DNA of 64,000 bases, taken from a virus. Every line of letters begins with the position of its first letter. Position 1 is the stretch's first letter. The DNA lies in IMG/VR virus record IMGVR_UViG_3300045988_102159, positions 78,631 through 142,630 of that record. One strand, given 5' to 3'. The position numbers and the translations under genes were made by a program. Shown in pieces: positions 20,749-20,954 of this stretch. The notes under the pieces are model-generated. The model did no database searches and was not told where the DNA came from. It worked only from the letters and a program-made list of their open reading frames with translations.

Positions 20749-20954
20749 CATAGCTGATTCATAAAATTATAGACTATATCATTTTCTCCGAAGAGAAACT
20801 TTCCGCTTCGCCGCATAAGCAGCTACTCCCTTTTAGGATAGTCGTTGAACTTATAAATTAGATGCTGATTGCCAATAGATGGTGTCCCAGCAGTTCAAAA
20901 AGTTAGTTTTTCAAGGTATCGCTACCAAGCAGGACAATCAATTCGTCCTTTTGC
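20749..20954 (-). mobile_element. group I intron (td-like, no ORF) in terminase large subunit gene
   Basis: Cores are TTGAACTGCTGGGACACC, GCAATCAGCATC, GTTCAACGACTATCC and GATATAGTCTA. P2 is GGTA-GCGA-TACC. The proposed guide sequence GTCCTGC pairs with exon GCAGAU. Boundaries are +/- a few nt. Confidence 0.65.

Follow-up and report, generated by a model that had tools for sequence, protein, structure and literature searches.

A compact group I intron predicted after the first base of a conserved glutamine codon in an SPbeta-type phage terminase gene

Phage group I introns of subgroup IA2 are typified by those of T4 td, nrdB and sunY and by the Bacillus SPO1/SPbeta introns, and Lactobacillus phage LL-H is known to carry an intron in its large terminase gene, terL. 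The IA2 subgroup accounts for over half of viral group I introns (PMC11835236), and terminases figure among the typical intron targets of phages (PMC3984707). In the Jug jumbo phages of the gut, short group I introns of ~206 nt split terL into two to three pieces, homing endonucleases are abundant, genomes carry many introns each and metatranscriptome reads confirm splicing (PMC12880540). The splitting of terL by group I introns in multi-intron gut phages is already documented (PMC3984707, PMC12880540).

At the 5' splice site of group I introns, the literature regards a U.G pair as a requirement or as "critical and highly conserved" (PMC2241849, PMC4227781, PMC8395846). The Group B IStrons, such as BcISt1, resemble the intron described below: they too form a natural lineage of group I ribozymes with a base other than U before the 5' splice site. 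They differ in splicing after G, their U-G pair being displaced by one base pair, and in carrying IS200/IS605 transposases (PMC4227781). These elements were the only natural non-U case that we found in the openly searchable literature, in which no natural group I intron with a C at the last exon position, C(-1), was found; subscription journals may hold earlier reports.

Here we analyze a terL intron in a 64-kb stretch of viral DNA, hereafter the window. Going by the RF00028 alignment, it resembles the phage IA2 introns in its J6/7-P7 (UUCAACGACUA) and J8/7-P7' (GAUAUAGUC) segments, its P7.1/P7.2 helices between P7 and P3', its GNRA-capped P2, its omega-G and its location within a conserved stretch of a phage gene that is essential. 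It is unlike them in being much smaller (185 nt, no ORF), with a stub P6 and no P9 elaboration, and in having its predicted 5' site after a C, with a C-G pair rather than U.G. Compared with the Jug phages, the window lineage differs in its SPbeta/YonF-type terminase, its ~140-kb genomes and its insertion sites; the parts available of the published accounts of split-terL phages make no mention of a non-U splice site. In contrast to the IStrons, the intron and its relatives have a P1 without U.G and a cleavage-site pair that is C-G or C.A, under a constraint imposed by a Gln codon. Beyond the known instances of split terL, comparison of sequences points to a lineage of introns at one site that is widespread and maintained and in which the cleavage-site pair has no U.

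The interrupted terL gene and the borders of its intron

All window coordinates given here are on the minus strand. An earlier note on this DNA, made without database searches, had observed that the two parts of TerL sit in ORFs 20922..21419 and 19327..20751, separated by a group I core. Both ORFs are present in the ORF list with the peptides that it quoted, the first having the C-terminal end ...STLITVADAKGRIDCPAW before its stop codon and the second starting with MILQSKMQEICKLIPGL, and the core strings are found between them. The true start of terL is the ATG at 21293-21291. Exon 1 (20945..21293), delimited using the ORF list, alignments of intron-less homologues and blastn against the uninterrupted locus L097, ends in ...ACA GTA GCA GAT GCA AAA GGA C; it codes for residues 1-116, including the Walker-A-like SRGFSKSF, and the first base of the Gln117 codon. 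Exon 2 (19327..20759) opens with AA TCA GCT ATG ATT CTG, thereby completing the Gln codon, continues with S A M I L Q S K and closes with the stop codon at 19327-19329. At 593 aa, the spliced TerL would have 100% identity with P0181, the uninterrupted protein of L097. Among PHROGs the joined protein has a match to phrog_15503 that runs across the gap, and a weak one to phrog_9 (large terminase). In tblastn its single-piece matches are the SPbeta-type YonF terminases, at <=41% identity, from Geobacillus E3, Phass-1, Enterococcus, Brevibacillus and Lactococcus 949-like phages. A Pfam search with the spliced TerL gave no match, and the YonF-type identity of the terminase came via PHROGs and tblastn.

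On its upstream side terL has a YonG-like neighbor, and on its downstream side a portal gene. The YonG-like gene (21280-22827) overlaps the start of terL by 14 nt and has an N-terminal Cys-rich region with weak matches to Lar-like, HNH and endonuclease VII families. Directly downstream of terL, between it and the portal gene, lies a free-standing gene (18843..19199) for a 118-aa homing-endonuclease-type nuclease, which matches phrog_9084 'homing endonuclease' (2.6e-25) and also phrog_559 and phrog_7140. It shares these families with ORFs lodged inside same-site terL introns of other phages (e.g. L005), and also adjoins the intron-less terL genes of L001 and L097. This gene lies outside the intron and may be related to its mobility. 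Elsewhere in the window RF00005 detects three tRNA genes, at 52429-52497, 53556-53626 and 53748-53818.

The insert matches the group I intron model RF00028 at 20752-20954 with 47.2 bits, at an E-value of 5e-11 locally and 6.9e-9 over the full 64-kb window. Though this lies below the Rfam gathering score of 50 bits, chance is no explanation for a match with such an E-value, and homologues at the same site score above gathering (L096 with 74.3 bits and L094 with 69.3 bits). The folding-energy z-score of the intron (-1.35) is unremarkable and uninformative alone. By the RF00028 match, the intron-less alleles and the covariation of P1-P8, the intron would span 20760..20944, comprising 185 nt without an ORF. 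It begins with GAAUUGAUUGUCCU and ends in ...UAUAAUUUUAUG, with the omega-G at 20760 preceding AAUCAGC; an intron-final G is likewise seen in the same-site introns L093, L094, L095, L096 and L005.

The placement of the junction is borne out by the homologues. All 15 aligned full-length homologues read TVAD-xKxQSAx-ILxSK, with K, Q and S nearly invariant, and among them P0001, which is 98-99% identical, reads TVAD-AKGQSAM-ILQSK. In the window ADAKG stands at the end of the upstream ORF, while SAM sits just before ILQSK; joining C20945 to A20759 gives GGA CAA TCA GCT ATG, translated as ADAKGQSAMILQSK, as in P0001. The intron-less form of the site is AAAGGACAGTCAGC. Of the two intron-less alleles, L001 (91.7% nucleotide identity) reads GGT CAG TCA GCA ATG, and L097 reads GGA CAG TCA GCT ATG; the blastn alignment of L097 with the window breaks exactly at 20945 and resumes right after the insert. 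As both alleles read straight through, the junction is settled at the DNA level: precise removal of 20760-20944 restores the continuous conserved reading frame. An enumeration of 2,250 candidate junctions yielded 20945|20759 as the sole high scorer that ends in G and restores GQSAM. From this DNA comparison we infer splicing and its exact junction, and place the insertion after the first base of the Gln117 codon, in the motif VAD-x-K-x-Q-S between Walker A and Walker B.

Two kinds of alternative junction were set aside. In-frame junctions at which exon 1 would end in U and the intron in G all either give a stop codon or lose K-x-Q-S. The start of exon 2 (20737-20759) has CAAUCA twice, encoding Gln-Ser at residues 117-118 and 123-124, and the second copy (20742-20737) offers an 11-nt complement to the guide; its use would delete QSAMIL and leave no consistent pair of bases at the splice sites. 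Cryptic docking of the 3' exon at this second copy is conceivable, with the same loss of QSAMIL.

Guide, fold and covariation

Over 10 nt the internal guide UGAUUGUCCU (20931..20940) is perfectly complementary to the ligated AGGAC.AAUCA. In P1 the 3' part of the guide, GUCCU, pairs with AGGAC of exon 1 (20949-20945), and in P10 its 5' part, UGAUU, with AAUCA of exon 2 (20759-20755). The 5' strand of P1, AGGAC|GA, occupies 20943..20949, with the 5' splice site between C20945 and G20944. The P1 hairpin is present in the MFE fold, where C20945 pairs with G20935, as C-G and not U.G, and the next pair is G20944.U20936; the cmscan alignment sets the splice-site U of the model on C20945. As the earlier note had seen, GTCCTGC lies just 5' of a GGTA-GCGA-TACC hairpin, which forms P2 (20915..20926) with a GNRA loop.

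The catalytic core (20798..20903), as drawn from the cmscan alignment, the fold and covariation, comprises P3 (20903-20897 with 20804-20798), P4 (20892-20887 with 20868-20863), P5 (20882-20880 with 20874-20872) and P6, a 2-bp stub (20861-20860 with 20851-20850). It is completed by P7, in which UAGUC (20776-20772) pairs with GACUA (20843-20839) and a U-A pair is replaced by C-G in L094. Between P7 and P3' the MFE fold contains P7.1, UCCU-AAAA-GGGA (20838-20827), and P7.2, GCUGC-UUAU-GCGGC (20823-20810). The P8 hairpin with its UUCG loop (20797-20784) falls within a 20772..20797 segment that also holds J8/7 and the P7 3' strand. P9 is minimal, as P6 is with its ~2 bp. By the P7.1/P7.2 helices of this modeled fold the intron belongs to subgroup IA; under the Michel-Westhof scheme it would be placed in IA2. 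Among natural variants, namely the window (identical to L010), L011 and L012, all 8 differences fall in predicted loops or junctions.

Covariation was assessed in an alignment of seven same-site introns, the long members of which had first been trimmed by hand of their P5 extensions and of the L6 loops with their ORFs. Over P1-P8, 90.9% of cells are paired as against 38-51% with the partners slid, a percentage favored both by the hand trimming and by the derivation of the tested structure from the window sequence. Changes on both sides affect 24 of 48 pairs, compared with 5-8 in the slid controls, and the covariation score is 0.452 versus ~0.1, with none of 500 shuffles reaching the observed value. 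P2, P5, P6 and P7 are 100% paired, P2, P5 and P6 with changes on both sides, which in P2 extend to all four pairs. P7.1 is 88.9% paired with three pairs changed on both sides, and P7.2, which is poorly aligned by MAFFT, 53.8%.

The guides track the local exon sequence at the same insertion point in five other loci. P1 is AGGAC/GUCCU in the window, GGGC/GCCC in L093, GAGC/GCUC in L094 and GAACC/GGUUC in L096, all with a C-G splice-site pair, and GGG/CCC in L005 and GGGC/GCCC in L095, both with C.A. P10 is AAUCA/UGAUU in the window, L093 and L094, AAAGU/ACUUU in L096 and AAUC/GAUU in L005, and is weak in L095. Thus, both guide halves covary with the exons in L093, L094 and L096. Across the seven same-site sequences the splice-site pair is C-G in five, C.A in two and never U.G.

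Taken as a whole, the locus is best described as a compact, ORF-less phage intron of IA type at 20760-20944, inserted after the first base of Gln117 of an SPbeta/YonF-type terL, a model to which, on sequence evidence, we give a probability of about 0.88. Under this model the pre-mRNA would fold so that the guide GUCCU pairs with exon AGGAC in P1, and exogenous guanosine would attack the C20945|G20944 bond. UGAUU would then align AAUCA of exon 2 in P10, and the freed 3'-OH would attack after omega-G20760. The predicted ligated mRNA is ...AAAGGAC joined to AAUCAGCU..., reading ...GGA CAA UCA GCU AUG... and encoding the intact 593-aa TerL; the predicted split-read junction is ...GCAAAAGGAC joined to AAUCAGCUAUG....

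Relatives at the same site and elsewhere in the genome

Searches with the exon-1 ORF product recovered dozens of truncated TerL N-termini of 115-130 aa, many of which depart from the frame immediately past base 1 of the Gln codon. Their tails are of the RID... type in the window, P0126, P0161 and P0170; NRV, NRD, SRN or TRI in P0130, P0131, P0133, P0138, P0160 and P0168; and GL or SL in P0121, P0122, P0125, P0127, P0129, P0150 and P0159. The exon-1 product itself is encoded by 20 contigs, and exon 2 recurs in several assemblies that are independent of one another, 142-kb scaffolds among them. Samples with this phage include those behind ENA ERZ28662543/SAMEA3665086, SRR9866669 and SRR19742878. 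One of these, L010, a 142.6-kb human-gut scaffold, is identical over a 301-bp stretch spanning the intron and encodes an identical exon-2 protein. This recurrence across assemblies indicates that the interrupted allele belongs to circulating phages. The guide-P2 region, used as an exact pattern, had no match in IMG/VR; the allele was recovered instead by exact look-up of the exon-2 protein.

The same-site introns L093, L094, L096, L005 and L095 share with the window the insertion point (C|AR of the Gln codon) and the core. L093 and L094 have the same P1 loop, AUUGAUU, as the window intron, and L096 is ORF-less like it (203 nt), with an almost verbatim P4-P6 in a TerL whose exon 1 is only 63% identical. 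In contrast, L093, L005 and L095 carry a homing-endonuclease-type ORF of 292-382 aa in L6 (phrog_559, 9084, 7140) and a P5 extension of ~100 nt, and L005 and L095 further differ in having A, not G, opposite the splice-site C. The 185 nt of the terL intron contain no intron-encoded homing endonuclease gene in the ORF list. The 2-bp P6 stub of the window intron lies exactly where relatives hold their ORF, which suggests ORF loss. The window intron probably descends from same-site introns with an L6 endonuclease gene and P5 extension, as in L093, L005 and L095, having lost both; it would now be inherited passively, or moved by recombination or a trans-acting endonuclease.

RF00028 recognizes three further group I introns in the window at its gathering threshold, and exactly six matches at the E-value threshold, each of them on the minus strand and within 2795-20954, in keeping with the count of six introns, one of them in terL, in the earlier note. 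Besides the terL match these are 2795-3085 (41.2 bits), which splits the tape-measure gene, 6906-7137 (76.1 bits), 7813-8038 (61.0 bits), 8068-8286 (80.1 bits) and 8351-8605 (41.0 bits), the last representing only the 3' half of an intron. The description of all six as residing in late genes holds in that each host is a virion or packaging gene: tape measure, a virion structural protein or terL. The virion-structural-protein gene (phrog_2729) has four group I introns within ~2.1 kb (6906-9045), with intervening exons down to 29 nt (8039-8067) and 64 nt (8287-8350). The intron at 8351-9045 harbors an HNH endonuclease ORF (8455-8946) in its P6 loop; its P1-P6 lie at ~8960-9045, with P4 CUGCUGG/AAUCAGCA and a canonical exon end ...AAGGGU|, and its P4-P6 is closely like that of the terL intron. 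If its 5' half at ~8972-9015 is counted, P4 divides the six as the earlier note had it, into three with TGCGG/CCGCA and three with TGCTG/CAGCA.

By sequence comparison, the terL intron and the other five belong to one structural subclass, as had been noted, and appear not to be recent copies of one another. In blastn any two of them share only blocks of 13-28 nt in the catalytic core. Global identities of 71-85% were dropped as evidence of recent duplication, as they are inflated by permissive gap penalties. The closest relatives of the terL intron are the same-site introns of other phages (L096, L093, L094) and not its genome neighbors. Hence, the recent intra-genome spread suggested by the earlier note is not supported. 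When the region was compared with GenBank phages by blastn, the matches were confined to 83 nt of intron core, in phages that are unrelated.

Intron presence or absence varies among phages that are >=97% identical, and terL as a whole has at least six resolved insertion sites. Among 92 terL loci, 62 are uninterrupted, and interruptions occur at ~aa 113, 116/117, 165, 235, 268, 299 and 409; additional sites around aa 140 and 185 are suggested by how the truncated products end. The loci concerned include L005, L021-24, L031, L038-40, L044, L050, L070, L084, L087 and L007-9, with ORF-less inserts of ~210-220 nt, ORF-bearing ones of ~750-1450 nt and up to three inserts per gene (L038). The aa 113 site, where the 62%-identical relatives L002, L035 and L037 are split, is 7 nt upstream of the window site. 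The L002 insert (1590-2515 of its locus, ~0.9 kb; GGU|AAAUAA...AAAUCG|AAAGCU) carries a LAGLIDADG-type endonuclease (phrog_4645, 2.8e-55) and is without an RF00028 match at E<0.01. RF00028 proved blind to the long ORF-bearing inserts of L002 and L005, and both were analyzed by hand. This striking hotspot in terL makes the phage group useful for studies of intron and homing-endonuclease turnover.

The C at the 5' splice site

The last base of exon 1, C20945, is the first base of the near-invariant TerL Gln codon, and P1 is without any U.G pair. A U is impossible at this position because it would turn CAA/CAG into the stop codons UAA/UAG. One reading accepts the intron and its borders and takes the C-G pair to mark a poor self-splicer, which would depend on cofactor or ribosome help, or be slow by design, throttling or delaying TerL. 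In the Tetrahymena ribozyme the C-1.G22 substitution speeds P1 undocking ~80-fold (PMC1891724), and a CAC target is tolerated but suboptimal in the Azoarcus ribozyme (PMC2241849). Other introns also speak for this reading: cmscan alignments put U at the splice-site position of the model in the other five window introns, and the other resolved terL sites in relatives (~aa 113, 235, 268, 299 and 409) are all compatible with a U preceding the insert and a G at its end. Against this, many diverged phages have an intron at this very C(-1) site, so that whatever cost there is must be tolerated, and engineered Anabaena constructs accept a pyrimidine at the splice-site position (PMC12355055). We regard the poor-splicer reading as unlikely but of real weight; given the Tetrahymena docking defect, efficient self-splicing of the terL intron is not to be assumed. 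That splicing might govern the timing of late protein synthesis, as the earlier note proposed, is speculation.

Far less probable is that the insert is a decayed, non-splicing remnant, with terL being a pseudogene in a defective phage or TerL being made as two polypeptides. The sub-threshold RF00028 score, the tiny P6 and P9 and the non-canonical splice-site pair could be read in this way, as could the in-frame ATG at 20751 near the start of exon 2. However, that ATG encodes a Met also present in the intron-less P0001 and is not preceded by a Shine-Dalgarno sequence, and two polypeptides would part Walker A from Walker B. Moreover, both exons are intact, with a protein 98-100% identical to that of uninterrupted alleles, and many assemblies contain the allele, some of them near-complete genomes of ~142 kb. 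Finally, variants change loops only, and every helix, including the guide, is kept by compensatory change across diverged phages, a signature of selection for splicing.

The intron of 206 nt at 20749-20954 envisaged by the earlier note, with its 5' site after U20955, its 3' site after G20749 and the product TVAD|ILQSK, is in frame, ends in G, has a canonical U.G pair available in a P1 of GCAGAU with GUCCUGC and nearly coincides with the RF00028 envelope, but is hardly credible: it sets the borders 10-11 bases outside those found here, deletes the seven residues (AKGQSAM in P0001) that all 15 homologues carry, near-invariant K, Q and S included, and that intron-less alleles keep as 21 nt, so that its own demand that homologues bridge TVAD|ILQSK goes against it; its P1 needs a bulge and, together with its P10 of GAAU/AUUC, provides 3 nt of contiguous junction complementarity as against 10 nt for the corrected junction; its exon partner is not conserved (GCAGAC in L093, GCGGAG in L094), while the P1 proposed here covaries perfectly; and cmscan puts the splice site at C20945, not U20955.

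Returning to the 185-nt intron with its C-G pair, errors of this kind extend to its relatives. RF00028 mis-places P1 in L096 (2817-3042), where upstream exon sequence is used as P1, and sets the splice-site U of L094 (2865-3179) on a U inside the intron. The automated boundaries at this site are therefore wrong, and automated and by-eye placement fail alike because both look for a U. Consequently annotation pipelines would predict a wrong TerL for a whole set of gut phages.

We tentatively propose, at somewhat short of even odds, that the aa-117 Gln site of SPbeta-type terL is home to a widespread natural intron lineage that lacks the U.G wobble, with C-G followed by G.U in the window and L096 types and C.A in the ORF-bearing L005/L095 type. 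Doudna, Cormack and Szostak reportedly found in 1989 that in vitro a C.A wobble can take the place of U.G, which would fit the latter type. The cleavage-site U.G, whose wobble receptor is formed by J4/5 and J5/4, has been treated as essentially invariant, and its replacement is deleterious in model ribozymes. The same-site family would thus provide natural, evolutionarily maintained C-G and C.A cleavage-site pairs, making testable how strictly the wobble is needed and what compensates for its loss. If such introns splice efficiently, group I 5' splice-site recognition can evolve away from the wobble receptor, and these phages would offer a natural system in which to study it.
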